Positions 9,342 through 47,002 of a stretch of 53,647 bases of DNA are shown piece by piece. The stretch is from a virus (taxonomy: Duplodnaviria > Caudoviricetes): the IMG/VR virus record IMGVR_UViG_3300042905_002653, positions 1-53,647 of that record; one strand, 5' to 3'. Numbering within the stretch: position 1 is the stretch's first letter; every line of letters starts with the position of its first letter. A program made the position numbers and the translations under genes. The notes under the pieces were generated by a model, which worked only from the letters and a program-made list of their open reading frames with translations, made no database searches and was not told the origin of the DNA.

Positions 9342-9355
9342 CTGCATCCATGCAG
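9342..9355. promoter_or_regulatory. CTGCA-N4-TGCAG palindrome before ssb
   Basis: CTGCATCCATGCAG. Confidence 0.7.
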
Positions 9356-9400
9356 AGTTGCAGCAGCACTCTGCCTCCTAGGGGCTTCACCGTCAAGCAC

Positions 9401-11803
9401 CTAGGAGAACAGGTAGGGGTTTTGGCCGATCCGCCCTTCATCCAGGGTGCCCACAATCGGCGGCCTCGGAATCCTTAAACCCTTTGCAGCGCCTTTGATC
9501 TCGGCTGTGATCTCAGCCAGCCAGTCCGGCCGGTACAGCTCGGAGATCCGGTAGCTGAGCGTCGTGCTCAGCCACTCCGCATCGCAGGGCGCAACGGCAA
9601 AACAGTCATGGTTTGGCAGCATCGTGACACCTTGTGCTGCACCCTCGTTGACCATTGCCCACACCAGCGCCGCATCGAAGCTGTGGATCAGGTTGGCCGT
9701 GATCCCCCTTGTGGTCTCCCGGCCGCTGAGCTCACCCGGCACGGGGTCATCGAGCACGGTCTGCCACCGCCGGCTGCCATGCAGCAGCGTCCTCACCTTG
9801 CTGGTGCCGCTCAGCTCCTTGCCCAGCTGGATGGGCAGCCCCATGGGTGACGTCCACCGCAGCGGGGCGTTCGCCTTCATGCACTGGCGGCACGCATCCT
9901 TCAGCCACTTCTGCAGGGCCACCGCGCCACCCAGCCGGGCGCCCACGGCCAGGCCGAACTTCCGCGCCAGGTAGCGGCAGGGAATCAGCCGCTGCTCCTC
10001 CAGCTTGTCCAGCCCCACCATCCCCTCGGCCTCGTCCAACTGGGCCACCAGCTGCTCGGTCAGCCCCAGCAGCTGGGCGCCGTAGACGGTGGACATGACG
10101 GGCAGCTTGGCCATGGCCCTGCTGATGCCACGCTCCAGCCACTCCCGCGCCAGGCGCTGCTCCCGGTAGCTGCCGGCCTCCAGGTCGCTGCGCAGCAGCA
10201 GCGTCACCTCGGCGGCCACCTCCTCGTAGAGATCGTGGCGGGTGGTGCCGATCAGGTTGCACGCCCGGGCAATGGCCTGGTCGCGCACCAGGGCGGCCAT
10301 GATCCCCGGCCCGCTGGTGGTCTGGTCCAGCCGCACCAGCTGCCGGATCGGCCGGGACGGATCCTCCAGCCATAGCTGCATGGCCCGGCAACACTGCAGG
10401 AACTGCCAGGGCTCCTTGGCATCGCGCCACAGGTGGGCCCGCTCTACCGGATCCTCGGCCGCGGCCAGCATCCTCTCCAGTTGATCCCGGCCCCACTGCA
10501 GCCGGTCCACCCAGCTGCCCTTGATCCCCCAGTGGATCGCGGCTGCCTTGAAGATCCAGTCGGCGGCGCGGTCGTCGCAGGGCCGGGCATTGGCCACCAG
10601 CACCTGGGCCTTCTCCCAGTCCGGCCCCTGGTGGGTGGTGGCCCGGTTGGCGGTGTAGACCCTGCCCCGCATGTCCATGCAGTAGCTGAACCAGATCGAC
10701 TGGCCGGCCAGCTGCTCGGCCTGGCGGATTGATGTCTCGATGGTGTTGCGGATGCGGGCGTTGATCCGGCGGTCGTTGTGGCAGGCGTCCAGCTCCCGGT
10801 GGCGCTGGGCCATCGCCTCACGACCCACCAGCTCATGGGGCATGGGCGGCAGCTCAGGCGGCCGGCTGCTCACCGGGAACAGGCCCCGGATCGAGGCATC
10901 CCAGGCGATCCGCTGGTGCTCCACCATCCAGGGGTCGATCTCCAGCTGCTGCGCCTGCAGGGTGTTCACCACCCGCAGGGCAGGGGCCAGCGCCTCGGCG
11001 GTGAGGTAGTCGAGGGGGTGGCCCTGCCGTGAGCGCACCAGCCGCTGAGTGTTGCCCAGGTGGCCGCCGCCGGTCATCCCCGCCCATGGCCTGGGCTGGG
11101 TGAGCATCGGCAGCTTGCGGGCTGGCCTGGGCCGCGGCGGATTGGCGGCGATGACATCGGCCACCGCTGCAGCGGGCGCCAGCTGCAGGCCGCGGCAGCT
11201 CACCGACTTGAAGGTGCGCAGCAGCTGGGTCTCGGTGATGATCAGCTCGAGCAGGAAAGCACCCACCTGGAAGCGCTCCTCGCGGGTCCAGGGGGCGGCC
11301 GTGATCCCCAGCGCCTTGAGGTTCTCGGTTGATGCCAGGGCCTTGCCGTGCCGGCGGCGGCCGATGCGCAGCAGGTCCTGGCCCCTGTCCTCAACCGGCA
11401 GCGTTCTGATCTCGGTCTCGATCGCCTTGCCGATGGCGTTGGCCATCGAGCGATGCGACCCGGGCCGGCTGATCCGGTCCAGCACCACGGTGAGCGCCAC
11501 GGCAGCGATCGAGCGGGGCCCCTTCTCGCCCATGTGGAACAGCAGCCACATGCCGGCGTGATACGGGCCGGCCACCACCTGGCGGGTGATGGCCAGGCCG
11601 ATGGTGTGCTCCAGCGCCAGGGCCACACGCTCGCCGTGGGCGCGGAGCAGGACGCTGCCGTACTCGGTGACGCTCTCGCGCTCCTGCCGCCGGAGCCTGG
11701 CCCGGTCGATCGCGGCGCGGTTGGCAGCGGCCTCCTCGGCCCGCTGTTCCAGATGCCGCTGCCGCTGCTCGGGGGCGGTGGATGAACTGCCGGATGCAGA
11801 CAA
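9401..11803 (-). CDS. T7-like single-subunit RNA polymerase
   Basis: DMRGRVY, motif A LDQTTSG, motif B RAMAKLPVMSTVYG, ANLIHSFDA, motif C HDCF, C-terminus YLFS; catalytic residues present. Confidence 0.95.
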   Translation of the reverse strand: MSASGSSSTAPEQRQRHLEQRAEEAAANRAAIDRARLRRQERESVTEYGSVLLRAHGERVALALEHTIGLAITRQVVAGPYHAGMWLLFHMGEKGPRSIAAVALTVVLDRISRPGSHRSMANAIGKAIETEIRTLPVEDRGQDLLRIGRRRHGKALASTENLKALGITAAPWTREERFQVGAFLLELIITETQLLRTFKSVSCRGLQLAPAAAVADVIAANPPRPRPARKLPMLTQPRPWAGMTGGGHLGNTQRLVRSRQGHPLDYLTAEALAPALRVVNTLQAQQLEIDPWMVEHQRIAWDASIRGLFPVSSRPPELPPMPHELVGREAMAQRHRELDACHNDRRINARIRNTIETSIRQAEQLAGQSIWFSYCMDMRGRVYTANRATTHQGPDWEKAQVLVANARPCDDRAADWIFKAAAIHWGIKGSWVDRLQWGRDQLERMLAAAEDPVERAHLWRDAKEPWQFLQCCRAMQLWLEDPSRPIRQLVRLDQTTSGPGIMAALVRDQAIARACNLIGTTRHDLYEEVAAEVTLLLRSDLEAGSYREQRLAREWLERGISRAMAKLPVMSTVYGAQLLGLTEQLVAQLDEAEGMVGLDKLEEQRLIPCRYLARKFGLAVGARLGGAVALQKWLKDACRQCMKANAPLRWTSPMGLPIQLGKELSGTSKVRTLLHGSRRWQTVLDDPVPGELSGRETTRGITANLIHSFDAALVWAMVNEGAAQGVTMLPNHDCFAVAPCDAEWLSTTLSYRISELYRPDWLAEITAEIKGAAKGLRIPRPPIVGTLDEGRIGQNPYLFS

Positions 11804-11892
11804 GGTGCGGCATCGGTAGCGGGATGCACTTATTACACCCCACCCCCGCAGAGTTGATCAGTGGGCCCCGTACTGCAGTTTCGGCGGGACAT

Positions 11893-11906
11893 CTGCAGGG
11901 ATGCAG
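11893..11906. promoter_or_regulatory. Palindrome between attP and RNAP
   Basis: CTGCAGGGATGCAG. Confidence 0.7.
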
Positions 11907-11920
11907 AACTGCAAAACGGT

Positions 11921-11958
11921 TTATGAGTCCGCTGCTTTCACCAGATAGCTAGACCCCC
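11921..11958 (-). tRNA. 5' half of a CAT-anticodon tRNA (Ile2 or Met); putative attP core, not a full tRNA
   Basis: GGGGGTC-TA-GCTATCTGGTGAAAGC-A-GCGGA-CTCATAA (acceptor strand, D arm, anticodon stem strand, loop), then similarity breaks; lies just downstream of the integrase. Confidence 0.8.
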
Positions 11959-12076
11959 GGGCAGTTGTGGCCTGGGTTTTGGGGTTTTTGGGTGGATGCG
12001 GAGGATGCCGATTTCGGCACCGATCCGCATCCATTTCGGCAGCCACTCTACGGCTGGTGGATACATCCGATTGAGT

Positions 12077-13063
12077 TCAGGCCTCCAGCGCTGCCACGCA
12101 GCTGGCCAGGGCCTCGGTGTGAAGGTGGAGATAGCGCTGCACGCTCTGGAGCGAGGTCCACCCGCCGAAGGTCATCAGCTGATGCAGCGGGATCCCACGG
12201 CTGGCCAGCTTGCTGGCGCAGGTGTGGCGGGTGCAGTGGATGGTCAGCGCCTCGTCGTTGATGCCCAGCTGCTCCTTGGCCTTGCTGAACAGCCAGCGAA
12301 ACTCGCTGTAGCGGTAGGGCCAGACCCGATGGCCCGGGACGGCCGGCAGATGGGGCAGCAGGGCATCCATGGCCCGGCGGGTGAGCGGGATCGAGCGGGC
12401 CCGGTTGGCCTTGGTCTCCCAGAAGGTGACGCGGGCCCGCTCGATGTCCACGTCCTGGCGCTTGAGCTTCTCGATCTCCCCCCAGCGGGCGCAGCTCTCC
12501 AGCAGGAACACGAACAGATCGGCCGCGGCGGGCTGGCCCATGGCCCGGAACGCATCGCAAAAGCCGGTGATCTCCTGCTCGGTGAAGGTGCGGTCCTTGG
12601 TGTTGCGGTTGGTCAGCTGCCGGGGCATGGCCGGGATGGCGCCCAGGTGGCCGTGGAGCACGGCATCGCTGAACATGGCCCGCAGGCAGCTGGTCTTGGC
12701 GTTGACGGTGCCGGGGCGGTTGCCGCGCTGGAGCAGCAGCTGGCGCCACTCGTTCACCATCGGGGCGGTGATGCTGCCCAGCTGGGTGAGCGGGCCAAAG
12801 TGATCCACGGCGGCCTGGGAATAGATCGAGGCGGTGCGCTCGAAGGCCTTGCCGGCCCAGCGGATGCGCAGGGAGAGGTCGCGGGCGTCCTTGATGGTGA
12901 TGCCGTCGGGCTCGCCGACCTGGCGGGCCACCAGCAGCTCCAGCATCTGGCGCTTGGCTTCGAGGGCCTCGGCTTTGGTCTTGCGCTTGGCGGTGCGGCG
13001 GGTGCCGCCCACGGTGACATCGGCGATCCAGCCATCGGCTGTCCGCCGGACTGATCCGGCCAT
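12077..13063 (-). CDS. int: Tyrosine integrase
   Basis: CARWGE (R), TKAN (K), HCTRH, GW, RYLH (Y). Confidence 0.95.
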   Translation of the reverse strand: MAGSVRRTADGWIADVTVGGTRRTAKRKTKAEALEAKRQMLELLVARQVGEPDGITIKDARDLSLRIRWAGKAFERTASIYSQAAVDHFGPLTQLGSITAPMVNEWRQLLLQRGNRPGTVNAKTSCLRAMFSDAVLHGHLGAIPAMPRQLTNRNTKDRTFTEQEITGFCDAFRAMGQPAAADLFVFLLESCARWGEIEKLKRQDVDIERARVTFWETKANRARSIPLTRRAMDALLPHLPAVPGHRVWPYRYSEFRWLFSKAKEQLGINDEALTIHCTRHTCASKLASRGIPLHQLMTFGGWTSLQSVQRYLHLHTEALASCVAALEA

Positions 13064-13093
13064 GGTGGTTCTCGGTGGTGGTGGTGGTGGTGT

Positions 13094-13411
13094 TCAGATG
13101 CGCTGCAGTTGCTGCAGCAGGGTGCGGCCCTTGCTGGAGAGCCGAACCAGGAAGCGCCGGCCCTCGTCCGGGTCGCGCTCCACGGTGAGCAGCCGGTAGC
13201 CGCGGTCGCCGTGGCGGTTGCGATCGGACAGGGCCGACACGCTGCGGGAGACGCTGGAGTTGGTGAGGTTTAGGGCCTCCTCCAGGTGCTCGAAGGTGCA
13301 GTGCTCGGTCGCGGCGACCTCTAAGAACAGTCGCGCTTGATGGAGCGGGAACCTAGTAGGGTCCTGCGCTGCAAACACAGCCAGGGCTTGGGAAAGCGAA
13401 GCCAAATCCAT
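13094..13411 (-). CDS. MarR-like winged-helix regulator
   Basis: LEEALNLTNSSVSRSVSAL...DPDEGRRFLVRLSSKG; upstream of int, as in cyanopodoviruses. Confidence 0.85.
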   Translation of the reverse strand: MDLASLSQALAVFAAQDPTRFPLHQARLFLEVAATEHCTFEHLEEALNLTNSSVSRSVSALSDRNRHGDRGYRLLTVERDPDEGRRFLVRLSSKGRTLLQQLQRI

Positions 13412-13441
13412 GGGCCCATGTGGCAACGGTTACTAGGAGTC

Positions 13442-13455
13442 TGGCACCGATGCAG
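13442..13455. promoter_or_regulatory. Palindrome variant before the MarR-like gene
   Basis: TGGCACCGATGCAG (2 mismatches). Confidence 0.45.
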
Positions 13456-13547
13456 AGCAAGGCGGCGCCGGCCGCCGTGCTCCTCGACCCACAGGTTCAG
13501 CTCCCGCCAGCCGGTAGGGAACGGCAGGGCGATCGACGCGATCAGGG

Positions 13548-13889
13548 CTATCCGCATAGGGCTGATGGTGCAAACGTACTATCTATCAAATCACGGCCGT
13601 TCTGGGTTAGAGCCAGTCGGAACCCTGATTTATGGGGGTGTCTGGTCCGCCCGATCAGCCTCAGGTTGCTGCGTCGGGCGTTGATCCCGGTGGTGCCGCG
13701 GCCGCAGAGGATGAGCACCAGCCGCTCGGCCTGGCTGATGCTCATCCCCATCTGGCGTTGCAGTTCGGGCGCGCTGTCTGCGCCGGATGCGATGCGCAAG
13801 AGCGCCTCAACCGCAGCAGCGCTCAGGTACGGCTGGGCCGCCCGGATCCCGCGGATCATGGCGGCCACATCTGCAGGGGTGGCGCTCAC
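13548..13889 (-). CDS. Second winged-helix DNA-binding protein
   Basis: ELQRQMGMSISQAERLVLIL...FRLALTQNGRDL; GTGA overlap with the upstream ORF. Confidence 0.65.
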   Translation of the reverse strand: MSATPADVAAMIRGIRAAQPYLSAAAVEALLRIASGADSAPELQRQMGMSISQAERLVLILCGRGTTGINARRSNLRLIGRTRHPHKSGFRLALTQNGRDLIDSTFAPSALCG

Positions 13890-14035
13890 AGCTTCGGCCT
13901 CCTGATGACCAGCCACACGCAGCCGACGGCCAGGGCCACCAGCCAGAAGAACTGGAACAGTGGCCAGAGGGTCAGCACCAGGGCGATCAGCGCCGGCACC
14001 CCCAGCGGCCGCAGCAAGCGGGCCAGGCGTCTCAT
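13886..14035 (-). CDS. Small membrane protein
   Basis: Manual translation MRRLARLLRPLGVPALIALVLTLWPLFQFFWLVALAVGCVWLVIRRPKL. Confidence 0.55.
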   Translation of the reverse strand: MRRLARLLRPLGVPALIALVLTLWPLFQFFWLVALAVGCVWLVIRRPKL

Positions 14036-14217
14036 CGGATCGCCTCCACTTTCTGCAGGGCGGCCGCGGCCACCTCCAGCTGGATCTCGGTGTCGGCCCA
14101 GCTGTCGTCCCCAGGCGGCAGGGCCTGAACCTGGGCGGCCAGCAGATCGGTGAGCAGTTGCACCCTGGGGCGCAGCAGCTGGGCCAGCAGGGCGGCCTCG
14201 ATCGGTGTGATGCTCAT
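14032..14217 (-). CDS. Early hypothetical protein
   Basis: ATGA-coupled chain. Confidence 0.6.
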   Translation of the reverse strand: MSITPIEAALLAQLLRPRVQLLTDLLAAQVQALPPGDDSWADTEIQLEVAAAALQKVEAIR

Positions 14218-14489
14218 GCGATTGCCTCCAGAACGCGGGCGGGTTTGGTGGTGGTGCGCTTGCGGGTGCGCGGTGATCTCTTGGGTGTGGGCGCGGGCGC
14301 CGGCTCGGGTGCTGGTGCTGGTGTTCGTGTTGGTGCTGGTGTGATGGTCACGGCGGGCCGGGCCGGCCGCCAGCCCGCCAGCAGCAGGGCCAGGGCCAGC
14401 CCGTGGGCCAGCAGGGTGCGCAGGGCCAGGGCCACAGCCCAGCAGCCCAGCAGGGCCAGTTCCGCGGTCGCTGGTGGTGTGTTGTTCAT
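14214..14489 (-). CDS. Early membrane protein with Pro/basic tail
   Basis: Hydrophobic N-terminus, PAP linker, RTRKR tail. Confidence 0.6.
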   Translation of the reverse strand: MNNTPPATAELALLGCWAVALALRTLLAHGLALALLLAGWRPARPAVTITPAPTRTPAPAPEPAPAPTPKRSPRTRKRTTTKPARVLEAIA

Positions 14490-14497
14490 GGTGGTGA

Positions 14498-14656
14498 TCA
14501 GAAGGGGTCGTTTTCCATCGAGTCGTAGAGCGCTTCGCGCGCCATTGCTTCGCGGATTTGCTCCCGCTCGATCTGCAGTGCTTCGGCTTCGGTGTAGCCG
14601 TGTGTCATCCAGTAACCGGCGATCGTTTCATCCCCGGCTGTGACTTTGCGGGCCAT
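14498..14656 (-). CDS. Early hypothetical protein
   Basis: MARKVTAGDETIAGYW...; preceded by an ACC-rich leader. Confidence 0.55.
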   Translation of the reverse strand: MARKVTAGDETIAGYWMTHGYTEAEALQIEREQIREAMAREALYDSMENDPF

Positions 14657-14744
14657 GGTGTTCTCGTTGGTGGTGATGGTGGTGGTGTGCTGGCGTGAGA
14701 CCAGCAGGGAGCGGACGGATCCGCTCCGGGCTGGTGTCGGGTGA

Positions 14745-14948
14745 TCAGGCCTCCTCGACGGTGAAACCGCGCTGCCTGAACCATTCGGGCTCAGTCCCAA
14801 ACAGTTGAGCCGGGATCTTCTGCGATGCGATCGCGTGACAGTGCAGCCGGATCCGTTCGCACTCAAACCGCGGACAGGGATCGTCAGGGAGCCGGGTAAA
14901 GGTCCGGCCCTCAGCCTTGAACGTGTCGCCGACCTTGATGCGTCGCAT
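14745..14948 (-). CDS. Early hypothetical protein
   Basis: Directly follows ardC. Confidence 0.55.
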   Translation of the reverse strand: MRRIKVGDTFKAEGRTFTRLPDDPCPRFECERIRLHCHAIASQKIPAQLFGTEPEWFRQRGFTVEEA

Positions 14949-14951
14949 GGC

Positions 14952-15890: not shown

Positions 15891-16115
15891 TGGTGGTGGT
15901 GGTGGTGGTGGTGGTGGTGTGCTGCTGAGGGCAGCAGGGAACCGCCGTAGCGGCTCCGGGCTGTCGTCAGTGGCTGGCTTTGCCGTAAGGCTTCCGGCCG
16001 CTGAGCTTTTGGCGTCGGTCGTGGTCGCGTGCTTCCGCGGCCGTCACCAGTGGCACCCGGTCCCAAACGGTCCCGGTGTTGGCTGCTGTCATCGGTGCGC
16101 CCCCTTAGCGGTGTC

Positions 16116-16129
16116 CTGCATGGCTGCAG
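16116..16129. promoter_or_regulatory. Palindrome in the early leader region
   Basis: CTGCATGGCTGCAG. Confidence 0.55.
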
Positions 16130-16439
16130 TGGGCGGCAGGGCGGGCACCGGCGGCACCAAGGCCGCGGCGATCATCCCGGCCGCTCCCAGGGCCGCGCAG
16201 GCCAGGCTGAAGGCGGGCGAGCTCCTAGTAGGCCGGCCGGCGCCAGTGGTGCGGCGTTGCAGCCGACGCGGCGCTGTGCGCCGTTTCGGATGCCCTGCCC
16301 CAGCCACAGCGCGCCAGGCCGGCTCGCGTGTGTAGGTCATCAGTTGTCCAGGTTCGGTGGTGGTGGTCTGCGTTGCTGCAGACCTTGCCAGTATGTAGGC
16401 AAACCGCATGGGTGCGGATTGGTTGGATGCTGGCGATCG

Positions 16440-16492
16440 TGTACTTGTAACAATTCGTTACCTGAGAATAGGAATGGGAACCATTCTCAAAA
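16440..16492 (-). promoter_or_regulatory. Candidate host-RNAP early promoter with Fur-box-like hexamer array
   Basis: AT-rich island upstream of the early genes; minus strand TTGAGA...TATTCT (spacing imperfect); plus strand GAGAAT-AGGAAT-GGGAAC-C-ATTCTC; GTAAC-N5-GTTAC at 16447-16461. Confidence 0.5.
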
Positions 16493-16516
16493 AAAAGGCA
16501 GGGCCGCAGCCCCACC
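16489..16516 (-). terminator. Intrinsic terminator
   Basis: GGTGGGGC-TGCG-GCCCTGCC followed by T8. Confidence 0.65.
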
Positions 16517-16596
16517 AGCTCAACTCAGCGGATCCCCTATCCGTTGAAGGGCCAGGCGCCGCAGGCGATCGGGCAAGGGTGGGTGCTTGCTGGCCA

Positions 16597-16666
16597 GCAC
16601 CGGCGCCAGCAGGGCAGGCCCAGGCCCGCACCGGCGCCAGCAGGGCAGGCCCAGGCCCGCACCGGC
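16597..16666. repeat. 31-bp tandem repeat (2 copies plus partial)
   Basis: GCACCGGCGCCAGCAGGGCAGGCCCAGGCCC at 16597 and 16628. Confidence 0.85.
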
Positions 16667-17001
16667 CGGCCCAGGGCGGCCGCAGGCCCCCGGCAGGGGG
16701 GAACCGGCTGCTCCACGCGCAGGGGACCCCACCAGATCACGCGACCCAAAATCGACCTTCAGCGACGGGGCAGGTCAGCAGCGGGGGCGAGGGGCGGGTG
16801 AGAGTTCTGCGTGGATGCAGCTGGTGCGCCCTGCGGGCCAACCCGGCGGAAGCTGGGCGGCGGGGTGTGTGGTGTGGCGGGGCTGGTGGGTGTGGAGCCC
16901 GGCTGTAGGCGGGTTGGGGCTGTTGCGGCTGTGGGTGGGTCGTCTTGTTGTCCCTACTGGTTTTTCTCCCTCCAGTAGAGAGATCAGAGATCACGCAAAG
17001 T

Positions 17002-17015
17002 TTGCAGTGGTGCAG
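17002..17015. promoter_or_regulatory. Palindrome variant before the RepL-like gene
   Basis: TTGCAGTGGTGCAG. Confidence 0.6.
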
Positions 17016-17166
17016 AGGGCCCTGGTGGGGCTACATTGCAGTCATGTGAAATCTGCAGGTAGCAAACCCCTTGCCCTCACTGGGTCGGATCCAGCGAGAG
17101 CAACTTCCTAGGAGGCCTTGCCTACTAGGTTTGGGGCGCCTGCGGGACCTGTGAAACCGCGAGCAC

Positions 17167-17577
17167 ATGAAGCCTAGAGAGGACGGTCAAGAGGACTTCT
17201 GCATGGTTGGATTCGAGGCCATCAGCGAGCTGGTGGGTGCTGCCACCCGGGAGAAGCGGCTGCAGCCCCGCGACGGAACGGTGTTGTGGATGGTGGTGGC
17301 CAGCGTCAACTGGCGCAGCGGGCGGGCCAGCGTGACGGCCGCGGCCATTGCCAGCGACCTGGGGCTCAAGATGACGCAGTGCGCCTCCTCGATCCGACGG
17401 CTGCAGGCCGAGGGTTTGATCGCCCGCGGCATCGACCCCAGATCGCGGCACTCGTTCTTCCTGCTCAACCCCCGCTTGAGCTGGGTTGGGTCAACGCAAC
17501 GCCGCGGCCACCTCTACAAGCAATGGGACGAGCTGACGAAGATCCCCAAGCTGGATGAGTTGGACGAGGCTGGGTAG
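17167..17577 (+). CDS. Winged-helix protein, RepL-like
   Basis: IASDLGLKMTQCASSIRRLQAEGLI followed by FLLNPRLSWVG. Confidence 0.65.
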   Translation: MKPREDGQEDFCMVGFEAISELVGAATREKRLQPRDGTVLWMVVASVNWRSGRASVTAAAIASDLGLKMTQCASSIRRLQAEGLIARGIDPRSRHSFFLLNPRLSWVGSTQRRGHLYKQWDELTKIPKLDELDEAG

Positions 17578-17589
17578 GGTGTGACTGCT

Positions 17590-17603
17590 CTCCACCGCTG
17601 CAG
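17590..17603. promoter_or_regulatory. Palindrome variant before ORF 17606
   Basis: CTCCACCGCTGCAG, 2 bp before the ATG. Confidence 0.55.
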
Positions 17604-17605
17604 CG

Positions 17606-17938
17606 ATGTCTGCCAACCAGTCGGCCAACGTCTACCTGGACAGCGCGGTGCGGTGTGCGATGAGCAAGTTCAACGGGTCGGTGGTGCCGCTGTGGCGCAT
17701 CTGGCGGCGGATTGTTGAGCTCGGTGCTGCAGCCCCAGCGTTCATCGCCCCGCAGGTCACGGCGGTCCAAGCACGGGTGACGGGCTTGAACGCACTCACC
17801 AAGTCGGCGCTGGCGGCGCTGCTGCTGGCGGACTGGGGGGAGACGGTGGACCCGGACAATTTCACCAAGAACCAGCTGATCGAGAAGGTGCTGGCCTACG
17901 AGGGCACTTGGGTGGAAGTGGGCTACACGGTCGGTTGA
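17606..17938 (+). CDS. Hypothetical protein
   Basis: Clean ORF with phage-like codon usage, preceded by a palindrome variant. Confidence 0.65.
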   Translation: MSANQSANVYLDSAVRCAMSKFNGSVVPLWRIWRRIVELGAAAPAFIAPQVTAVQARVTGLNALTKSALAALLLADWGETVDPDNFTKNQLIEKVLAYEGTWVEVGYTVG

Positions 17939-20090: not shown

Positions 20091-20104
20091 TTGCATGGGT
20101 GCAG
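20091..20104. promoter_or_regulatory. Palindrome variant between divergent terS and endolysin
   Basis: TTGCATGGGTGCAG. Confidence 0.65.
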
Positions 20105-21565: not shown

Positions 21566-21579
21566 CTGCACTGCTGCAG
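21566..21579. promoter_or_regulatory. Palindrome before the holin-like genes
   Basis: CTGCACTGCTGCAG. Confidence 0.65.
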
Positions 21580-24075: not shown

Positions 24076-24089
24076 CTGCAGGGGTGCAG
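24076..24089. promoter_or_regulatory. Palindrome before ORF 24049
   Basis: CTGCAGGGGTGCAG, intergenic. Confidence 0.7.
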
Positions 24090-28004: not shown

Positions 28005-28018
28005 CTGCACGGCTGCAG
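28005..28018. promoter_or_regulatory. Palindrome before the tail fibre
   Basis: CTGCACGGCTGCAG, 5 bp from the GTG. Confidence 0.7.
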
Positions 28019-38607: not shown

Positions 38608-39056
38608 CAGGCCCCCCTGCTGCAGCGGCAGAACAGCTCACTGCAGGGCCCCATTGGCATTGGTGTGGCCACGGCGAACCCCAGCGACTGCAGCCATCGC
38701 AGCGTGTGGGTGCGCTTGGCCAGCACCCAGTTGTGCAGCGGCCCGGCGCCATCAGCAATCAGGGCATCCACCCATTGCTTTGCACCCCTGATGAACTGCC
38801 GCTGATGGCTGGGCGTGGCCAGCAGCGCATCGGTGGCCAATAGCCAGATCACCCCGCCAGTTGCCACGCCGCACAATCCCACTGGCTCACCATCATCTCC
38901 CTCTATGCAACGGCAGTCAGCGGAGAATCGCCAGCTCTGCATTACGGCATCGCGGGGATTCATCCCATGGCTGCAGAACACCTCGATCGCATCCCCCTGG
39001 CGCAGGTTGCGGGCGACGTGCCGGGCCCTGCTTTCTGTCGGCGGCGCCCACCTCAT
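38607..39056 (-). CDS. gp13-like protein (acetyltransferase-like fold)
   Basis: NLRQGDAIEV, IWLLATD, LHNWV, RWLQSLGF. Confidence 0.8.
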   Translation of the reverse strand: MRWAPPTESRARHVARNLRQGDAIEVFCSHGMNPRDAVMQSWRFSADCRCIEGDDGEPVGLCGVATGGVIWLLATDALLATPSHQRQFIRGAKQWVDALIADGAGPLHNWVLAKRTHTLRWLQSLGFAVATPMPMGPCSELFCRCSRGA

Positions 39057-41548: not shown

Positions 41549-42186
41549 AGGAACACGCCTCCCAGCAGCCGATCGGTCAGGCCCTCAGCTGGCTGGAAGG
41601 TGGGGAACCGCCGCCGGCCGGTGATCATGTTCGGCGCCTCTTGGATGTTCTCCACCCGGAGCAGCTCGATCAGCGCCTGCTGCTCGTCCAGGGCGGTGTA
41701 CTGCACCCCGGCGGTGTCGCCGATGGTGCGTGCGCTGAACACCCGGGCGGCACGGATCAGGCTCCAGCGGTTGAAGGCCTCAGGGCACTCGTTCCACGGC
41801 AGCAGCCACACCACCTCCGCCCGCAGTTCGGCCACCGGGATCTGGTAGCTGCGGCTCTCCTTGTCGTAGACCCGCTGGCCCCGCAGCTGGTAGCGGTGCT
41901 GGAACTCGTACGGGTCCGGCTGCCAGCTGACGATGTTGGCCGGCACCGTGATCTCCCCGTTGGTGGCGCGGGTGAAGGGGTAGGCGCGCTCGCTGTTCCA
42001 GCTCCAGCCGCGGGTCTGCCCTTCCTTGTGCAGCTCCAGGATGGTGGCCTCGGCGGTGCGGGCCTCCAGTACCTGCTGATTCTCAAGGGTGCTCACCGGC
42101 TGTTCGCCGATGTTGATCAGCACCACGTTCACCGCATCCAGCAGGGTGGTGCGGCCAGGCGTGGCGCTCTGGTTTTCGACGCCCAT
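41545..42186 (-). CDS. Tail tubular protein A (gp11)
   Basis: LDAVNVVLINIGEQPV, GWSWNSE, RAARVF. Confidence 0.95.
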   Translation of the reverse strand: MGVENQSATPGRTTLLDAVNVVLINIGEQPVSTLENQQVLEARTAEATILELHKEGQTRGWSWNSERAYPFTRATNGEITVPANIVSWQPDPYEFQHRYQLRGQRVYDKESRSYQIPVAELRAEVVWLLPWNECPEAFNRWSLIRAARVFSARTIGDTAGVQYTALDEQQALIELLRVENIQEAPNMITGRRRFPTFQPAEGLTDRLLGGVFL

Positions 42187-42191
42187 CTGCT

Positions 42192-42205
42192 CTGCGGCGG
42201 TGCAG
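42192..42205. promoter_or_regulatory. Palindrome variant before tail tube A
   Basis: CTGCGGCGGTGCAG, 5 bp from the ATG. Confidence 0.65.
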
Positions 42206-42227
42206 CCCTCATGCTATCGGTGCCAAC

Positions 42228-42259
42228 AAAAAGGCCCCAGCGCGCCAAACGCTGGGGCC
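42228..42259 (-). terminator. T-phi-like terminator after the capsid gene
   Basis: GGCCCCAGCG-TTTGGCG-CGCTGGGGCC-TTTTTGTT. Confidence 0.85.
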
Positions 42260-42284
42260 CCATGACCTTTGCTCCAGTCAAAGA

Positions 42285-43319
42285 CTAGGGCACTTCGATT
42301 ACGGCTGCACCCTCAGCACGGAGGATCCCCATGCCGATGGCCATCCGGGCCACAAACAGCTGGCTCTGATACACCACGTTGTAGTCACCGCCAGGGGCAG
42401 TCATCTGCAGCTGCGGGCGCCGCAGGGTGAGGCAGCCGATGGCGTCCTTGTGGAAGATCAGCGCCCGGCACTTCGACAGGTTCTGCTGGTAGGCAGCGTT
42501 GCGGTCGAAGGTCGTGTTGGTGTAGGCCGCCTGGGTGACGTGGTTGGACCACATCACGGGGAGTCCCTTCACCCGGCCGATGGTGCCGCCGCCATAGGTG
42601 CCATTGGCCGACCCTTGGTTGAAGTCGGAGTTGATCACCTTGGAGCCTTCGTTCAGGAAGTCGTACTCGTCCGGGGGGACGACAACCACCATGTCCTCAA
42701 CGGGCACGTCCTTCTTCTGCATGGCGACTTTGATGTCGCCGATTACAGAAGCGAGCTCGTCACCTTTGGCCTGCTTCGAGGCAGTGGCATAGCCGGCGCT
42801 GAGGGTCCGGGCGGTGCCGGTGCGGCCGGCATTGCTGGCCTTGCTCAGCGGCTCGGTGGTGCGCTTGGCCGCGGCATAGAGCACCCGGGCAAGCCGGGCA
42901 TCCTTCTCGCGGGCCAGGGCCTCGCCCAGCTGGTACATCATGTCCTGCCGATACTGCACGTCCTCCATGAGGTCGTCCAGGTCGTAAACGGTGTCAGGTG
43001 CCACCAGCAGACCATCGAGATTGATGATCTCCTCGTTGCGATCCGACGGTGCGTTGCTGGGGTTGGGGTTGTTGGCGTCGGTGGGGACGTTGGTGATCGG
43101 CGTGCCGGGGGTGTGGTACCCAGCAATCCGACGACCGGTCACCTTGAACCGGGCAGAATGGCCGCCCCGGATGGAGCGCTCCTTCACCCGGCCGGTGAAA
43201 ACGGTCTTGCGATCGAAGGCGGTAAGCACCTCCGACATGCCCAGTTTCAGGAACAGGGCGTAGTTGTCTGCGGCGTTGCCTTTGATTTGGCCAAGCCGCG
43301 ATGGCGTGATAAGCGTCAC
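42285..43319 (-). CDS. Major capsid protein (gp10)
   Basis: ALFLKL..SEVLTAF, RSIRGGHSARF, LGEALA, GMGILRAE. Confidence 0.95.
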   Translation of the reverse strand: MTLITPSRLGQIKGNAADNYALFLKLGMSEVLTAFDRKTVFTGRVKERSIRGGHSARFKVTGRRIAGYHTPGTPITNVPTDANNPNPSNAPSDRNEEIINLDGLLVAPDTVYDLDDLMEDVQYRQDMMYQLGEALAREKDARLARVLYAAAKRTTEPLSKASNAGRTGTARTLSAGYATASKQAKGDELASVIGDIKVAMQKKDVPVEDMVVVVPPDEYDFLNEGSKVINSDFNQGSANGTYGGGTIGRVKGLPVMWSNHVTQAAYTNTTFDRNAAYQQNLSKCRALIFHKDAIGCLTLRRPQLQMTAPGGDYNVVYQSQLFVARMAIGMGILRAEGAAVIEVP

Positions 43320-43393
43320 TGCAGGGTTTGCGGTGAGCCTCTGCTATCCCCAGGCTTTTGCGATCAGGGTGTCGCCCTCGGGCGGCCTGTGCT

Positions 43394-43407
43394 CTGCATG
43401 AGTGCAG
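43394..43407. promoter_or_regulatory. Palindrome before the capsid gene
   Basis: CTGCATGAGTGCAG with an adjacent degenerate copy (TGAACTCATGCA). Confidence 0.7.
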
Positions 43408-43426
43408 ATGAACTCATGCACCCTTG

Positions 43427-44401
43427 CTACAGGAAGATTGGGGATCGTGCAAACTTGGCGTCGATGTATCGCCGGTATTTCTCGTCCACCAGGTAGCGCT
43501 GCTTGCCGCCCTTGGTGAGCACCGCCTTGGCCTCCAGCGCCTCCTCCTCGTTCTCGAACACATCCAGCGCTGGGGTGGCGTTGCCGCCGCTGGCCAGCAC
43601 CAGGTCGGGCTCCTTGTCGGCGCTGGCCGCCTTGTTCTGCAGCCACCGCACCGCCATTTCTGCGGCGGCCCGGCTGCCGGTGTTCACCGCATCGTTGTAG
43701 CTGGCCAGCTCGGCCTCGCTCAAGTTGGTGGCAGCCCACTGGCTGAGCTTGGCGAACTGCTGGTCGCCGCCCACCAGGGAACGGACGGCCGCGGCATCCT
43801 CATCGCTCAGGCCTGGGGCGGTGGTGTCGGCCGCGGCGGCAGGGCGGAAGGCGGCCTCGTAGCGCTCGATCAGCTGCGCAGGCAGGCCCAAGGCGCCGGC
43901 CAGCTTGTCGCGCATGGCGCTGGTGTCCTCGCCCTTCTGCACTGCGGCATCCCACAGCGCCAGGTCGATGCCCTCGCGCTCGGCTGCTGCCACCACGGTC
44001 TCCCCGTAATGGCCCACGGCGTCCTCGCGGGACAGCGGGGCCACCGGCTCAGGGTCAGCTGTCGAGGATTCCTCGGTAGCTGAATCGGCCCGCTGGCCCA
44101 GCTTTTGCTGCAGCGCCAGGTAGGCCTTCTCCAGTTCCTCGGGGCTCTTGAACTTCCCGGCCAGGGGGCGGGCCTCGCCGGCCGGCTCGTCGCCTTCGGC
44201 CTCCACCTCGTCGCCTTGGACAGTGAGGGTGGCGAAGTCAGGTTGTGCCGCAGGCGCCGGTGGCTGGATGGTGCCGCTGGCCAGCGCAGCGTCCTCCTCG
44301 GCGATCTCCTGCAGGAACCCGGCCAGTGCGTCCTTGTCGTAGCCGGGGCCGGCCAGCGCCATTTGCTCGGGCGTGATGTCCATGGTGGGGGTGGTGGTCA
44401 T
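43427..44401 (-). CDS. Capsid scaffolding protein (gp9)
   Basis: LAGKFKSPEELEKAY, VGGDQQF..WA..NL, RY..D..YR. Confidence 0.9.
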   Translation of the reverse strand: MTTTPTMDITPEQMALAGPGYDKDALAGFLQEIAEEDAALASGTIQPPAPAAQPDFATLTVQGDEVEAEGDEPAGEARPLAGKFKSPEELEKAYLALQQKLGQRADSATEESSTADPEPVAPLSREDAVGHYGETVVAAAEREGIDLALWDAAVQKGEDTSAMRDKLAGALGLPAQLIERYEAAFRPAAAADTTAPGLSDEDAAAVRSLVGGDQQFAKLSQWAATNLSEAELASYNDAVNTGSRAAAEMAVRWLQNKAASADKEPDLVLASGGNATPALDVFENEEEALEAKAVLTKGGKQRYLVDEKYRRYIDAKFARSPIFL

Positions 44402-46026
44402 TCGGGTTGTGGTTGCTGGATCTCTTGAACGGTCTGGGCGGCGTTGGCCAGCTTCTGCGGGTCGGCCATCGCCGACTGCATCACGGCCGCCTGCTGCTGG
44501 GCCTCCATCGCGGCCTGCCGCTCCTCCTCGATCTGCTGCTGGCTCTTGATCAGACCCACCGTGTCGATGCCCATTGCGGCAGCGAGGCGGCTGATCAGCT
44601 CCGACGGGATCAGGTATTGCAGCGTGCCTTCGGGGGTGATGGTCTGCTGCAGGATCTGCATGAAGCGGGCATGGCGTTCGAGGTCGTTGCCCCGGCCCAC
44701 GGCCGCCAGGCCCACGCTCACCACCGGCTTGATGGTGTCGTCGGGCAGCTTGGGCAGCCCGCCGGACTGGGTGAGCAGGTACAGCCGCCGGGCGATGTAG
44801 GGGTACTGGAACTCAGTCGTGAGCACGCTGTAGATCCCGCCCAGGCTGTTCTCGATCTGCTGCGCTTGGATCCGCACCTCCTCGGCCGTGGTGCGCTCCG
44901 AGTCGCGGGCTTCGTTCAGCATGAAGCTCACGGCCAGCCGGGCCTCCACCCGCTGCAGCCGCTGCTCGGCCACCGCCAGATCGCTGCCCTTGCCCACCTG
45001 CACGGCGGTGATGTCCTCCGGGTTGCCGGTGAGGCAGGCGCCGTTGGCGGCCTCGTTGAACTGCTTGGCGGTGACGGCTGCACCCGGCTTGGCCAGGAAC
45101 TTGCACATCGAGCTGACCAGCGCGCCCTCTGTCAGCGCCCGGGTGAGGGCGTTGGCGGTTTGCAGGTCGGCCATGGTGGCCGCCTCGACATAGCCCGGCC
45201 CGTAGTCCTCCGAGTCGATGGCGAACATGCGCAGCGGAATCCAGGGGCTGTGCTCCCGGTTGCAGCTGCCCTCGCTGCCCTCGATGCGGCGGCCCTTGAG
45301 CTCCTGATACCAGCTGCAGCGGCTCTTGTTCCAGCTGATGTGGGTGTAGACCTTGACCAGTCGCTCATCAGGCAGGGTCTCGGTGCCGCCGCCGGGGCGC
45401 TCCTCGGTGAGCGGATCCATCGGCTCCACCTGGTCGAGGATCTTGCGGGCCGCCTCGGGCAGTTCGTCGGCCGGGATCCGCTCGCACACCACCGCCTCCA
45501 GCGGCCGGCCCACGGGGTCGCGGCGCAGCACATAGCGGTAGAGGTTGAACACCTTGGCGCCCTCCTTGGGCAGCCAGATCAGGCAGTTGCCGGCAATGAT
45601 CAGGTGCAGCAGCGCCTGGTGCAGAGCGGTGCGGTCGTTGCTGGCCTCGATGCTGCGTAGCACCGCCCGCTCCATCATCCCCAGGGTCTTGTCCACCTGG
45701 GTCTTGAGCTCAGCGATCTGCTCCGGGCTGTCGCCGGTCGCAATCATTTCGGCCTGCTGCGCAGCAAAGGCCATGTCGTCGTGGACGAACCGGAAGAAGG
45801 TCTCGGTGGGCGGCAGCAGGGCCAGCAGCAGCCGGCTGGCGATGTTGTGGACACCCCGCTGACCGATGCCATCCCACGGGTGGTCGATCTTCTGCAGCGC
45901 CTGGGCCTCGGGTTCGCCATCGAACGGCATCACCCAGGGCAGCGTGAGTGCAGACGCCTCCCGCCCGCGGTCAATCCAGTGGTTGCGCGCTGGTTCGAGC
46001 TTCTTGTAGCGGTTCTCTGCTGTCAT
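44398..46026 (-). CDS. Portal / head-tail connector (gp8)
   Basis: GVHNIASRLLLALLPP, EDYG, RDSERTTAEEVR, LGGIYS. Confidence 0.95.
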   Translation of the reverse strand: MTAENRYKKLEPARNHWIDRGREASALTLPWVMPFDGEPEAQALQKIDHPWDGIGQRGVHNIASRLLLALLPPTETFFRFVHDDMAFAAQQAEMIATGDSPEQIAELKTQVDKTLGMMERAVLRSIEASNDRTALHQALLHLIIAGNCLIWLPKEGAKVFNLYRYVLRRDPVGRPLEAVVCERIPADELPEAARKILDQVEPMDPLTEERPGGGTETLPDERLVKVYTHISWNKSRCSWYQELKGRRIEGSEGSCNREHSPWIPLRMFAIDSEDYGPGYVEAATMADLQTANALTRALTEGALVSSMCKFLAKPGAAVTAKQFNEAANGACLTGNPEDITAVQVGKGSDLAVAEQRLQRVEARLAVSFMLNEARDSERTTAEEVRIQAQQIENSLGGIYSVLTTEFQYPYIARRLYLLTQSGGLPKLPDDTIKPVVSVGLAAVGRGNDLERHARFMQILQQTITPEGTLQYLIPSELISRLAAAMGIDTVGLIKSQQQIEEERQAAMEAQQQAAVMQSAMADPQKLANAAQTVQEIQQPQPE

Positions 46027-46418
46027 CGGCCGATGTTCAACCCGGTGGCCGGTGCGCGGCGGGTGCCGATGGTGAGGCTCGGGGTGCGCGGAGCAGCGGG
46101 CGCAGCGGGCTGGATGGCCTCAGTGGTCTGGGCGGCAGCGGCCGGCGCCTGCTGCGTGGTCTCGACGGTGTAGGACTGGTTGGCCATGGCTGCGCTGGAG
46201 CTGATCGCGGCCTGTTGCTGCTGCAGTTCCTCGGCAGCTGCCCCGGCGGCGGCATTGGCCTCGTCGATCTGTGCCTGCAGCTGCTGCTGGAACTCGGCCT
46301 GGCTGGCCTCTGCTGCCTTGGTGGCCATGTTGAGCTGCTTCTCCTGCTGCTTGATCTCCTTGTTGGAGGGCCCCTGGTACACAACCTTGGGGGGCTGGGG
46401 GGTTGATCCCATGCACAT
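46023..46418 (-). CDS. Virion assembly protein (gp7.3-like)
   Basis: MC start, ends SLTI...GLNIG; precedes the portal. Confidence 0.7.
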   Translation of the reverse strand: MCMGSTPQPPKVVYQGPSNKEIKQQEKQLNMATKAAEASQAEFQQQLQAQIDEANAAAGAAAEELQQQQAAISSSAAMANQSYTVETTQQAPAAAAQTTEAIQPAAPAAPRTPSLTIGTRRAPATGLNIGR

Positions 46419-46420
46419 GA

Positions 46421-46822
46421 TCAGTACCTGGCGATGTTGAGGCCGGTGCCGGCCTTGTTGCCGCTGGCCGCCTTGGGCTCGATGCGCAGGGTGGTCTTGC
46501 CCTGGGGGCTGGTCATCCCCTGGCGGCTGCTGCCCAGCACCGGCGCCTTGGCGGCCGGCTCGGGAGTCGGCGCACCGATCAGCGCTGCCATCCGTGCTGC
46601 GTCGGCAGCGGTCTGCGATGCGCGCTGCTCCTGGGCCGCCAGCAGCTGCTGCATCGTCCCCTGCTGGTTGAGGGTGGCCTGGTTGAGCCGCTCCTGCATC
46701 AGCATGGTGGAGCTCTCCTGCTGCTGGCGCAGCGCGGCCATCTGCTGATCGGCCATCCGATCAAAGGCGCCCATGTCCGGCATGGTGATCGTCGCCCGTG
46801 GGGCGGAACCTCCGAAGCACAT
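46421..46822 (-). CDS. Virion protein (gp6.7-like)
   Basis: MCFGG start, GKTTLRI...GLNI; paralogous tail to the next gene. Confidence 0.7.
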   Translation of the reverse strand: MCFGGSAPRATITMPDMGAFDRMADQQMAALRQQQESSTMLMQERLNQATLNQQGTMQQLLAAQEQRASQTAADAARMAALIGAPTPEPAAKAPVLGSSRQGMTSPQGKTTLRIEPKAASGNKAGTGLNIARY

Positions 46823-46989
46823 CAGCTGAGGCCCTCCTGTTGTTCGGCGTGCCAGCGCTTGATGCAATCCACCACCGCCTGCTCACCGATCCAGTGATCA
46901 ATGTCCCGATGGGACATCGAGCGATCCGGCTTTTGGCCAAAGGTGGCGTCGAGCCGCTTGATCAGTTCATCGCTGACGATGGGAAACAC
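46822..46989 (-). CDS. gp6.5-like small protein
   Basis: Manual translation MFPIVSDELIKRLDATF...IGEQAVVDCIKRWHAEQ (55 aa). Confidence 0.7.
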   Translation of the reverse strand: MFPIVSDELIKRLDATFGQKPDRSMSHRDIDHWIGEQAVVDCIKRWHAEQQEGLS

Positions 46990-47002
46990 TGCATCCATGC
47001 AG
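46989..47002. promoter_or_regulatory. Palindrome at the start of the late operon
   Basis: CTGCATCCATGCAG, identical to the 9342 site. Confidence 0.7.

Follow-up and report, generated by a model that had tools for sequence, protein, structure and literature searches.

A conserved network of probable symmetric operators in a relative of Synechococcus phage S-SRP02, most likely read by a MarR-family dimer

The 53,647-nt stretch of DNA analyzed here (the window) is the whole of a single IMG/VR virus record, IMGVR_UViG_3300042905_002653, which is rated 100% complete and holds a genome of about 46 kb with a G+C content of 66%. We found that a 14-bp palindrome, CTGCA-N4-TGCAG, stands in front of nearly every transcription unit of this genome, as the initial annotation had claimed; its enrichment in non-coding DNA and its conserved syntenic placement in relatives both bear this out. 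The motif, with one symmetric operator per unit, is a real, conserved, phage-encoded regulatory network. Sequence comparison indicates that the reader of the palindrome is most likely a dimer of the MarR-family protein of the phage, and we infer that this protein binds the sites, represses the units behind them and serves lysogeny. The complete reading, in which the palindromes are operators of a dimeric phage protein, most likely MarR, and together form a distributed repressive lock for lysogeny or latency, has about an even chance of being correct.

Enrichment and placement of the palindrome

All eight perfect copies named in the initial annotation (at 9342, 11893, 16116, 21566, 24076, 28005, 43394 and 46989) were recovered. 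Dinucleotide shuffles of the sequence contained 0.21 perfect copies on average and 2 at most, and none of the 100 shuffles reached 8. When up to one mismatch was allowed, 20 matches were present compared with 5.98 expected. In a comparison of all palindromes with 5-nt half-sites and spacers of 0-12 nt, the motif ranked at the top genome-wide, with 8 copies compared with 0.05 expected from base composition. As for the five variants listed initially, those at 17002, 17590, 20091 and 42192 carry one mismatch and were confirmed as such, but that at 13442 carries two. A de novo search for shared 11-mers with one mismatch revealed no other shared block and returned only G+C-rich codon repeats.

According to the gene map, non-coding DNA makes up 3,584 of the 45,976 nt (7.8%), and it holds seven of the eight perfect copies and 7 of the 12 one-mismatch copies. 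Coding DNA contained one perfect copy compared with 0.03 expected, and five one-mismatch copies compared with 2.1 +/- 1.5, when codons were shuffled within genes; the codon-aware comparison of intergenic with coding DNA, which had been suggested as a check, therefore came out in favor of the motif. The perfect copies stand 0-100 nt ahead of gene starts. Because the nominally coding copy at 21566 precedes the conserved part of its small gene by 11 nt, all eight perfect copies are best read as non-coding on the present gene map, in agreement with the initial description of almost all copies as intergenic and many as 0-30 bp from a start codon. The part of the small gene that follows the copy at 21566 matches an unannotated stretch of S-SRP02 (6066-6224), which is located just past a perfect copy at 6033 in that phage.

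The site is two-fold symmetric, and the centers of its half-sites are 9 bp apart, about one helical turn. Only 10-12 positions are conserved, and these are arranged symmetrically around a free spacer. The flanks are symmetric as well, with a T before the palindrome in 8 of 13 oriented sites and an A after it in 8 of 13.

An origin by chance or as a compositional artefact, such as CTGCAG-rich codon usage, has virtually no chance of being correct. CTGCAG and GCAGC-type words are common in this genome of 66% G+C, and five of the one-mismatch copies fall within coding DNA. Against this stand the shuffles and the codon control given above, the concentration of the copies in 7.8% of the genome, and the retention of the motif in relatives of 38-41% G+C. 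This explanation was refuted by the shuffles, the codon control and the conservation across relatives.

Conservation across related phages

At least one perfect copy was found in 60 of 64 IMG/VR loci encoding a capsid protein at least 56% identical, including all nine loci at 38-41% G+C, and in none of 15 IMG/VR loci with a capsid protein 21-24% identical. Conservation in relatives, another check proposed at the outset, was thus confirmed. The closest named relative is Synechococcus phage S-SRP02, with an RNA polymerase 46% identical and an integrase 64% identical, followed by the uvMED G9 fosmids, which are now classed as Oinezvirus and Stopalavirus. S-SRP02 carries four perfect and five one-mismatch copies; seven of these nine front genes, and six are syntenic with copies in the window. 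An independent 41.8-kb contig (G003:C4) carries copies before ssb, the polymerase gene, the MarR region, the control region and a divergent peptidase pair, and also before the tail fibre gene, tube A, the capsid gene and the late operon.

Across lineages a copy occupies four positions: past the terminator of the capsid gene, upstream of that gene, at the late-operon start and ahead of ssb. In the post-capsid gap of the relatives, the terminator is followed by a T-A-N-N-N-T hexamer, 4-5 nt, the palindrome, and 4-9 nt to the start of tube A. At the head of the late operon the palindrome abuts the start codon. The pre-capsid gap contains a conserved GCATGAGT block, the palindrome and then a conserved hairpin, and the gap after the polymerase gene contains TTGNNN-N16-18-YANNNT, a spacer of 7-12 nt, an intact or degenerate palindrome, and the CACAA-ATG of ssb. 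In three relatives (L082, L086 and L088) the palindrome lies about 100 nt before the polymerase gene, and in S-SRP02 a one-mismatch copy lies ahead of p003. The copy at 20091 is the sole palindrome in a 34-nt gap between divergent starts, and the same arrangement is present in contig G003:C4 (27905); since these starts are only 34 nt apart, their promoters must fall inside each other's coding regions. In Oinezvirus both half-sites are altered, giving CTAC(A/G)-N4-TGTAG at the post-capsid, polymerase/ssb and tail positions. For distant MarR relatives, palindrome enrichment in 10-20-kb stretches was noisy through GCTGC/CAGCAG repeats, and syntenic gaps were used instead.

The motif belongs to the phages. 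In four binned Cyanobium-type metagenome-assembled genomes (MAGs), the phage contigs contain 12, 6, 3 and 1 copies, and the remaining 2.4-3.0 Mb contain 2, 6, 20 and 13 copies, about chance density. A host regulon is unlikely at such a density, and this candidate was ruled out on the four genomes. A scan of the P-SSP7 genome revealed neither the same nor any other enriched palindrome. The limited literature that was searched contained no description of the motif; in a term search, the text of the S-SRP02 paper names MarR, and the terms 'promoter' and 'palindrom' are absent from it.

Promoter-like sequences and transcripts at the sites

Sequences resembling sigma70 promoters precede many of the palindromes. 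The -10-like hexamers TAGCAT, TAGCCT and TAGGGT pointed out in the initial annotation are present 5, 8 and 9 nt before the motif, and most late sites have only a hexamer of this kind. Before ssb, TTGNNN-N16-18-YANNNT was found in 20 of 30 unique polymerase/ssb gaps of relatives compared with a shuffle mean of 1.33, the gaps being related sequences and not independent. The tube A hexamer keeps T1, A2 and T6 across lineages (TAGCAT, TAACAT, TAGGAT and TAAACT) at 4-5 nt from the motif. On these looser matches and their conservation, on which the promoter reading rests, the palindromes appear to span roughly -1 to +25 of host-type-looking promoters.

Metatranscriptome contigs 100% identical to the window were available from two studies and four runs. 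As these are contigs and not reads, they are used here for the positions at which they stop, within the stretches that they cover, and nothing further about starts, strands or expression levels is drawn from them. The capsid contigs end on their 3' side at 42264/42267, at the terminator, and their 5' ends in the four runs lie at 43391, 43394, 43402 and 43417. The deeper the capsid contig, the further upstream it reaches, and the deepest covers the whole palindrome and 10 nt upstream of it. This contig ends at the A at 43417, which is 7 nt after TAGCAA, itself 17 nt after TTGCAC. We infer that 43417 is the transcription start, which would place the palindrome at about +11 to +24. The late-operon contigs of both studies stop at 46983 and 46987, 2-6 nt past the palindrome, and one contig stops at 27995, 10 nt past the tail-fibre palindrome; in one run (X1), three of the eight listed pieces begin about 10 nt or less from a palindrome. 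The coverage of the capsid gene in four runs implies that the freshwater samples contained transcripts of this phage or of a nearly identical one. The capsid gene (42264-43417) was also the best-covered part of the 20-kb stretch that was compared with the RNA runs.

The MarR-family protein as candidate reader

The small winged-helix protein encoded ahead of the integrase gene was assigned to the MarR family. It matched Pfam MarR_2 at 22 bits, under the 27-bit cut-off, and PHROG 9665, annotated as 'transcriptional regulator', with an E value of 2e-22. In a profile comparison with the PDB, the 10 best of 12 matches were MarR-family chains aligned over the helix and wing, the best being 2eth_A (E 7.6e-5), and the two weakest were MntR and a LysR-family protein. 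The predicted homodimer scored 0.71, compared with 0.00 for the best of three controls; for calibration, 20 of 30 proteins whose solved structures are same-chain pairs attained this mark, as did 1 of 23 with single-chain structures. The dimer runs agreed in at least 97% of contacts, the predicted local distance difference test (pLDDT) value of the partner was at least 88, and the predicted interface is formed by the N- and C-terminal helices (residues 1-34 and 99-105). Because MarR dimers have already been solved, this result may reflect likeness to known structures.

MarR, the integrase, the polymerase, ssb, the exonuclease and the zinc-ribbon protein are encoded by all motif-bearing phages examined, as would be expected of the reader; among them MarR is the better candidate. 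The order marR-int-RNA polymerase is present in 6 of 6 relatives with upstream DNA, none of which is without marR, and also in S-SRP02, Oinezvirus, Stopalavirus and contig G003:C4. Furthermore, the recognition helix of MarR follows the form of the motif, in that NS[ST]VSR is found with CT[G/C]CA, NASASR with CTACA, and NSAVSR with sites lacking the outer C. The window and one relative (L092) have an identical MarR helix and the same motif. At least 90% of 25 aligned MarR sequences have Cys38, a nearly invariant residue at the beginning of the helix-turn-helix. In some proteins of the MarR family, a single cysteine serves as the oxidant sensor.

Proposed mechanism

In the favored mechanism, a MarR dimer on its operator would block promoter clearance by RNA polymerase, either the host or the phage enzyme. 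One operator per unit would lie just past a sigma70-like -10 hexamer, sometimes accompanied by a -35 hexamer, and usually 0-30 nt before the start codon. With a dimer blocking clearance at each operator, every unit would be locked separately, including the early region, the RNA polymerase gene, the ssb/replication operon, the late operon, the capsid gene, the tail tube and tail fibre genes, and the lysis side. The two-mismatch copy near marR is a possible weak auto-operator and would permit weak self-control. Together with the integrase and the tRNA-Met attachment site, the operators would constitute a whole-genome lock for lysogeny or latency. Repression is favored because the sites lie in the path of the polymerase, some of them after strong promoters, and because a weak copy is found at the regulator's own gene and the module adjoins the integrase and the attachment site. 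A dimeric regulator acting as a distributed switch was one of the two readings offered in the initial annotation, and it is favored by the symmetry, the synteny, the specificity, the joint alteration of both halves in Oinezvirus, the lack of compensatory changes, the placement at or shortly past likely transcription starts, and the tracking by MarR, with silencing as the likelier direction of its action.

Alternative explanations

The palindrome could in principle act as RNA, as a 5-6-bp hairpin at transcript 5' ends, shortly ahead of the start codon, with a role in mRNA stability, processing or translation that an RNA-binding protein might mediate. Transcripts at the capsid gene include the site, a start codon follows it by 0-12 nt at 8 of 13 sites, and a palindrome folds alike in both directions, which would suit the divergent pair at 20091. 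The variants speak otherwise. Among 38 unique 14-mers from two syntenic positions, of which 37 were scored, the departing pairs comprised 29 broken, 3 wobble and no compensatory pairs. Given this lack of compensatory changes, the selected feature appears to be the DNA site of a dimer and not a hairpin, and the pattern is, on sequence evidence, the signature of half-site reading on DNA by a two-fold symmetric protein; the double change in Oinezvirus taken alone could fit either a dimer with a new specificity or a hairpin. In addition, the predicted hairpins are weak (-4.7 to -12.2 kcal/mol) and mostly no better than shuffles, with one of eight unmatched by any of 200 shuffles, and Rfam gave no match for the element. 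A conserved stem sequence with a free loop is the reverse of known protein-hairpin recognition, and the sites in the control region and those 74-150 nt before genes are unsuited to a role in translation. We therefore regard an RNA element as highly improbable. We also consider it very unlikely that the palindrome is a class II/III-like promoter, or the initially transcribed part of one, for the single-subunit RNA polymerase of the phage, which was the other reading offered initially. The site map does resemble the promoter map of T7, with sites past the polymerase gene and ahead of ssb, the capsid gene, the tail genes and the fibre gene; no other repeated candidate promoter motif was found, and CCTAGG pairs lie past the polymerase gene. 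The sequence preceding tube A (TTGGCACCGATAG) bears a loose likeness to the published Syn5 promoter (PMC3950665). The Syn5-like 'GGCAC' part is not kept in relatives, and a monomeric polymerase explains neither the exact two-fold symmetry nor the double change in Oinezvirus. The free spacer and weakly conserved flanks are unlike 17-23-bp T7-type promoters, and no asymmetric block of 15-23 bp is conserved up to the start site. Moreover, the RNA contigs include the capsid palindrome, the upstream hexamers keep only T1, A2 and T6, which is the host -10 pattern, and a site also precedes the polymerase gene itself and occurs in the early region.

If the palindrome is an operator, its reader might be a phage protein other than MarR, in particular the NrdR-like zinc-ribbon protein, which is without an ATP-cone. 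Ribbons of the NrdR type bind palindromic boxes as dimers. Homologues of this protein are present in S-SRP02, Stopalavirus and contig G003:C4, with a short form in Oinezvirus, and none is present in P-SSP7, which is without the palindrome set. On the other side, the ribbon is poorly kept among phages with the motif: those of the window and L092 are only 39% identical and differ in residues of the strand that follows the first Cys pair, unlike the identical MarR helices of the two phages. Known NrdR boxes are A+T-rich, unlike the palindrome, and the gene belongs to the ssb operon, one of the units headed by a palindrome. We judge such a reader to be quite unlikely. The same MarR dimer might instead be a general activator that, from its position shortly past the start, aids host RNA polymerase at weak phage promoters and so would turn the host enzyme toward almost every unit of the phage. 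This rival is serious because a homologue, P-SSP7 pMarR, has been reported to activate from downstream of the start, and nevertheless we consider it unlikely here. The P-SSP7 report (PMC9692554) describes a pMarR dimer that binds downstream of the start, raises reporter expression and contacts the RNA polymerase alpha subunit, and in our alignment S66, R67 and G106 of that protein (PMC9692554) correspond to the invariant S55, R56 and G95. Many promoters in the window are also without a -35 hexamer, late sites in particular having only the -10-like hexamer, and the capsid gene, the top expressed gene in the RNA runs, has a perfect site. Conversely, the best-defined promoters, those of ssb in relatives and of the capsid gene, already have good -35 and -10 hexamers, and sites lie before the early region and near marR, units that must fire before the protein exists. 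A site at +1 to +25 is in the path of the polymerase, a steric problem noted by the P-SSP7 authors themselves; their work, done in a hybrid-promoter system of E. coli, reports several footprints, an affinity in the sub-micromolar range and no defined motif (PMC9692554), and P-SSP7 has no comparable palindrome set.

Attachment site and evidence against the proposed lock

Just downstream of the integrase gene, a phage attachment site (attP)-like sequence copies a tRNA-Met(CAT) gene over its 5' half. All four of four Cyanobium-type MAGs carry, on contigs other than those of the phage, a tRNA-Met gene that matches this sequence at 92-93% identity over 39-45 nt. tRNA gene calling found no tRNA gene in the window, and the half copy came to light only when the host MAGs were compared. 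Attachment-site copies usually carry the 3' half of a tRNA gene, and here it is the 5' half. After integration through a 5' half, the polymerase gene and its palindrome would lie directly downstream of the host tRNA promoter, and the polymerase gene would be cut off from the marR-int operon.

A number of observations weigh against the repressive lysogeny lock. No integrated copy was found among the eight matches in 185,579 species genomes, all seven close matches being contigs of at most 42 kb, and the tRNA-Met gene on host contig G001:C73 is intact; missing integrated copies in MAG representatives are weak evidence. The RNA runs show their heaviest coverage at the capsid promoter, which has a perfect palindrome, so the palindrome does not prevent strong expression during infection. 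Strict sigma70 consensus scans returned one and zero promoter-like sites, none of them at palindromes, and no convincing -10 hexamer was seen at 13442, 16116, 16807, 21566 or 24076. Transcript ends are only weakly indicated by contig ends. The association of helix type with motif form goes along with phylogeny, with about three lineage groups in the sequences compared, and is not proof of recognition, and a second lineage-wide DNA-binding protein, the zinc ribbon, exists. P-SSP7 pMarR, the one homologue that has been studied, differs in that it is reported to activate a host gene, rne, with several footprints and no defined motif (PMC9692554). Finally, Shitrit et al. describe marine T7-like cyanophages as integrating without stable lysogeny (PMC8776855), and they ascribe the missing lysogeny to absent regulatory or repressor genes (PMC8776855). 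It is a tentative and rather doubtful idea that the freshwater and marine lineage of the S-SRP02 group, Oinezvirus and Stopalavirus owns a genome-wide lock, made up of a minimal MarR dimer, an operator for each unit, the integrase and the attachment site, that enables true lysogeny or reversible dormancy, with MarR perhaps sensing redox or light conditions in the host through its cysteine and releasing every unit together.

Comparison with known systems

The palindromes share features with several distributed regulatory sites. The stoperators of mycobacteriophage L5 and its cluster A relatives are 13-mers without symmetry, which affect elongating polymerase in a single orientation. They resemble the present sites in having many genome-wide copies in short intergenic gaps and in being read by the phage's own regulator, so that transcription is controlled at many points. 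In contrast, the sites described here are symmetric and located at promoters, with a likely MarR-type reader, and one copy serves a divergent pair. The repressor of Streptomyces phage phiC31 binds conserved inverted repeats (CIRs) at many intergenic places, mainly in the early region; these are the nearest analogue in symmetry, although the protein family and the sequence differ and phiC31 is a siphovirus. In T7lac vectors lac repressor on an operator just past the start blocks phage-type or host polymerase, an engineered arrangement that is a precedent for the geometry only.

Among T7-like phages, sites for a MarR-like repressor on both sides of the RNA polymerase promoter were hypothesized for temperate, integrase-bearing members by Boeckman et al. 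2022, as cited in the LUZ100 paper (PMC10134795). This MarR hypothesis was put forward with Agrobacterium phage Pasto and taken up for Pseudomonas phage LUZ100 (PMC10134795). The module of the window is similar, with marR directly upstream of the integrase gene and next to the polymerase gene, the attachment site beside the integrase gene, and a candidate MarR site (11893) between the integrase and polymerase genes. Whereas the proposed sites in those phages are described around the polymerase promoter only (PMC10134795), the palindrome here heads about 13 units and is lineage-wide. LUZ100 also has a 17-bp phage-specific promoter motif at eight places (PMC10134795), in contrast to the host-type-looking upstream elements described here. 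P-SSP7 pMarR (PSSP7_011, 'gp0.7') is a 40% identical homologue that is likewise dimeric, with the Ser-Arg pair of its recognition helix and its C-terminal Gly, residues mutated in the P-SSP7 work, invariant here, and it is likewise reported to bind downstream of the transcription start (PMC9692554); its recognition helix differs from the helix here. What would be new is the extension of MarR control in a T7-like phage to multi-site symmetric operators genome-wide.

Genome organization and other features

Positions 2351-5577 and 48327-51553 form a 3,227-bp direct repeat of 99.97% identity at a spacing of 45,976 bp, and the DNA on both outer sides of the repeat is divergent. From this repeat, the window looks like one genome of about 45,976 bp, circular or terminally redundant, assembled past its own start, probably through an assembly that overran two strain variants. 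Together with the status of the window as a whole viral record, the self-repeat indicates a single genome, in which the outer DNA represents replication-side genes read twice. The initial annotation was correct that no motif with up to one mismatch occurs in 1-9341 or 47003-53647, but its assignment of that DNA to another phage did not hold; a prophage beside a second, flanking phage was ruled out by the self-repeat and the whole-record status.

The gene order is collinear with that of S-SRP02, comprising early small genes and ArdC, MarR, the integrase, RNA polymerase, ssb, RusA, an NrdR-like zinc ribbon, a 5'-3' exonuclease and then the late operon with portal, scaffold, capsid, tail tube A and B, internal proteins and tail fibre; terL and a C39 peptidase are encoded on the opposite strand. 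The phage collection that was searched contained no near-identical DNA. MAGs of Cyanobium and Prochlorococcaceae include related contigs in their bins, and because the tRNA-Met half also matches tRNA-Met genes of such MAGs, the host is very likely a Cyanobium-type picocyanobacterium. The coordinates of the sites and associated features are summarized in Table 1.

Table 1. Coordinates of the palindromes, promoters and associated features in the window
Feature	Position	Strand	Remarks
NrdR-like zinc-ribbon protein	7588..8184	-	Second, weaker candidate reader; Pfam Zn_ribbon_NrdR 39.1 bits, above cut-off
Perfect palindrome	9342..9355		Between RNA polymerase stop 9401 and ssb ATG 9336, 6 nt off; occupied in relatives
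Extra half-site TTGCAG	9358-9363		Beside the ssb palindrome
Sigma70-like promoter TTGACG-N17-CAGAGT	9368..9396	-	ssb operon; ends 12 nt ahead of palindrome
Perfect palindrome	11893..11906		Between integrase/attP and RNA polymerase gene, about 90-100 nt before polymerase start
attP-like 5' half of tRNA-Met(CAT)	11917..11961	-	Just downstream of integrase
Tyrosine integrase	12077..13063	-	Pfam Phage_integrase E 1.9e-19
MarR-family winged-helix protein, 105 aa	13094..13411	-	Candidate binder; recognition helix LTNSSVSRSV
Two-mismatch copy TGGCACCGATGCAG	13442..13455		30 nt ahead of MarR start
Perfect palindrome	16116..16129		1.28-kb non-coding control region
One-mismatch copy	16368..16381		Control region
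One-mismatch copy	16807..16820		Control region
One-mismatch copy	17002..17015		151 nt ahead of + strand gene 17167-17577
One-mismatch copy	17590..17603		2 nt ahead of ATG 17606; TAGGGT 9 nt upstream
One-mismatch copy	20091..20104		2 nt from GTG 20082 (-), 12 nt from ATG 20117 (C39 peptidase, +)
Perfect palindrome	21566..21579		11 nt before in-frame GTG 21554 of small conserved gene; syntenic with S-SRP02 copy 6033
Perfect palindrome	24076..24089		26 nt ahead of ATG 24049; gene homologous to S-SRP02 p003
Perfect palindrome	28005..28018		5 nt ahead of GTG 27999, tail fibre gene
One-mismatch copy	42192..42205		5 nt ahead of ATG 42186, tail tubular protein A; TAGCAT 5 nt upstream
Intrinsic terminator	42231..42261	-	After major capsid gene; 13 pairs and T run; precedes the 42192 copy
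Perfect palindrome	43394..43407		74 nt ahead of major capsid gene start
Sigma70-like promoter TTGCAC-N17-TAGCAA-N6-A	43417..43452	-	Capsid gene
Perfect palindrome	46989..47002		Head of late (portal-scaffold) operon; last G is first base of GTG start; TAGCCT 8 nt upstream

The control region (15891-17166) is without a convincing coding signal, lies between the divergent early and packaging/lysis genes, and contains four copies of the palindrome. A terminator-like hairpin with a T8 run was also observed there on the - strand (16497-16516). The names RepL-like, holin and terS given initially to genes of this area could not be upheld, as neither Pfam nor PHROGs gave a match for 17167-17577, 17606-17938 or 16089-16409.

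The capsid 5' leader contains a hairpin after the palindrome (about 43367-43387, - strand), with the sequence GGCCGCCC-GAG-GGCGAC-ACC in the window and GGGCCTCC-TTAG-GGAGAC-ACCCC in relatives. Its stem sequence varies by lineage with the pairing kept, and it is present even at 38% G+C. The word CCTAGG occurs only five times in the window; the copies at 9377 and 9400 follow the polymerase stop, and that at 17107 lies 60 nt ahead of the + strand operon. In relatives, a CCTAGG precedes the -10 hexamer for ssb by 4 nt, and a second CCTAGG is often found in a 16-bp palindrome just past the polymerase gene. CCTAGG may be a second control element.

The repeated block contains a gene for a DUF4942/methyltransferase-like protein (4156-5712, corresponding to 50132-51565) and one for a pentapeptide-repeat protein (3345-4115). 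Neither protein has a counterpart in S-SRP02, Oinezvirus, Stopalavirus or contig G003:C4. Tandem arrays were observed at 537-848 (period 12 nt), 3605-3835, equal to 49581-49811 (15 nt), and 52559-52858 (15 nt), the array at 3605-3835 being inside the pentapeptide-repeat gene.

Implications

The network would provide a natural pairing of operator and regulator in at least two specificity types, CTGCA and CTACA, and the lineage has a cultured member, S-SRP02, which grows on Synechococcus SR-C1. The finding bears on how a highly processive polymerase is kept quiet in integrase-bearing T7-like phages. If MarR were an activator, the system would be a rare case of genome-wide activation from downstream of the start. 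Temperate phages of picocyanobacteria are a long-standing question; if the favored mechanism is true, an operator lock that marine T7-like cyanophages are said to lack might permit lysogeny in picocyanobacteria.

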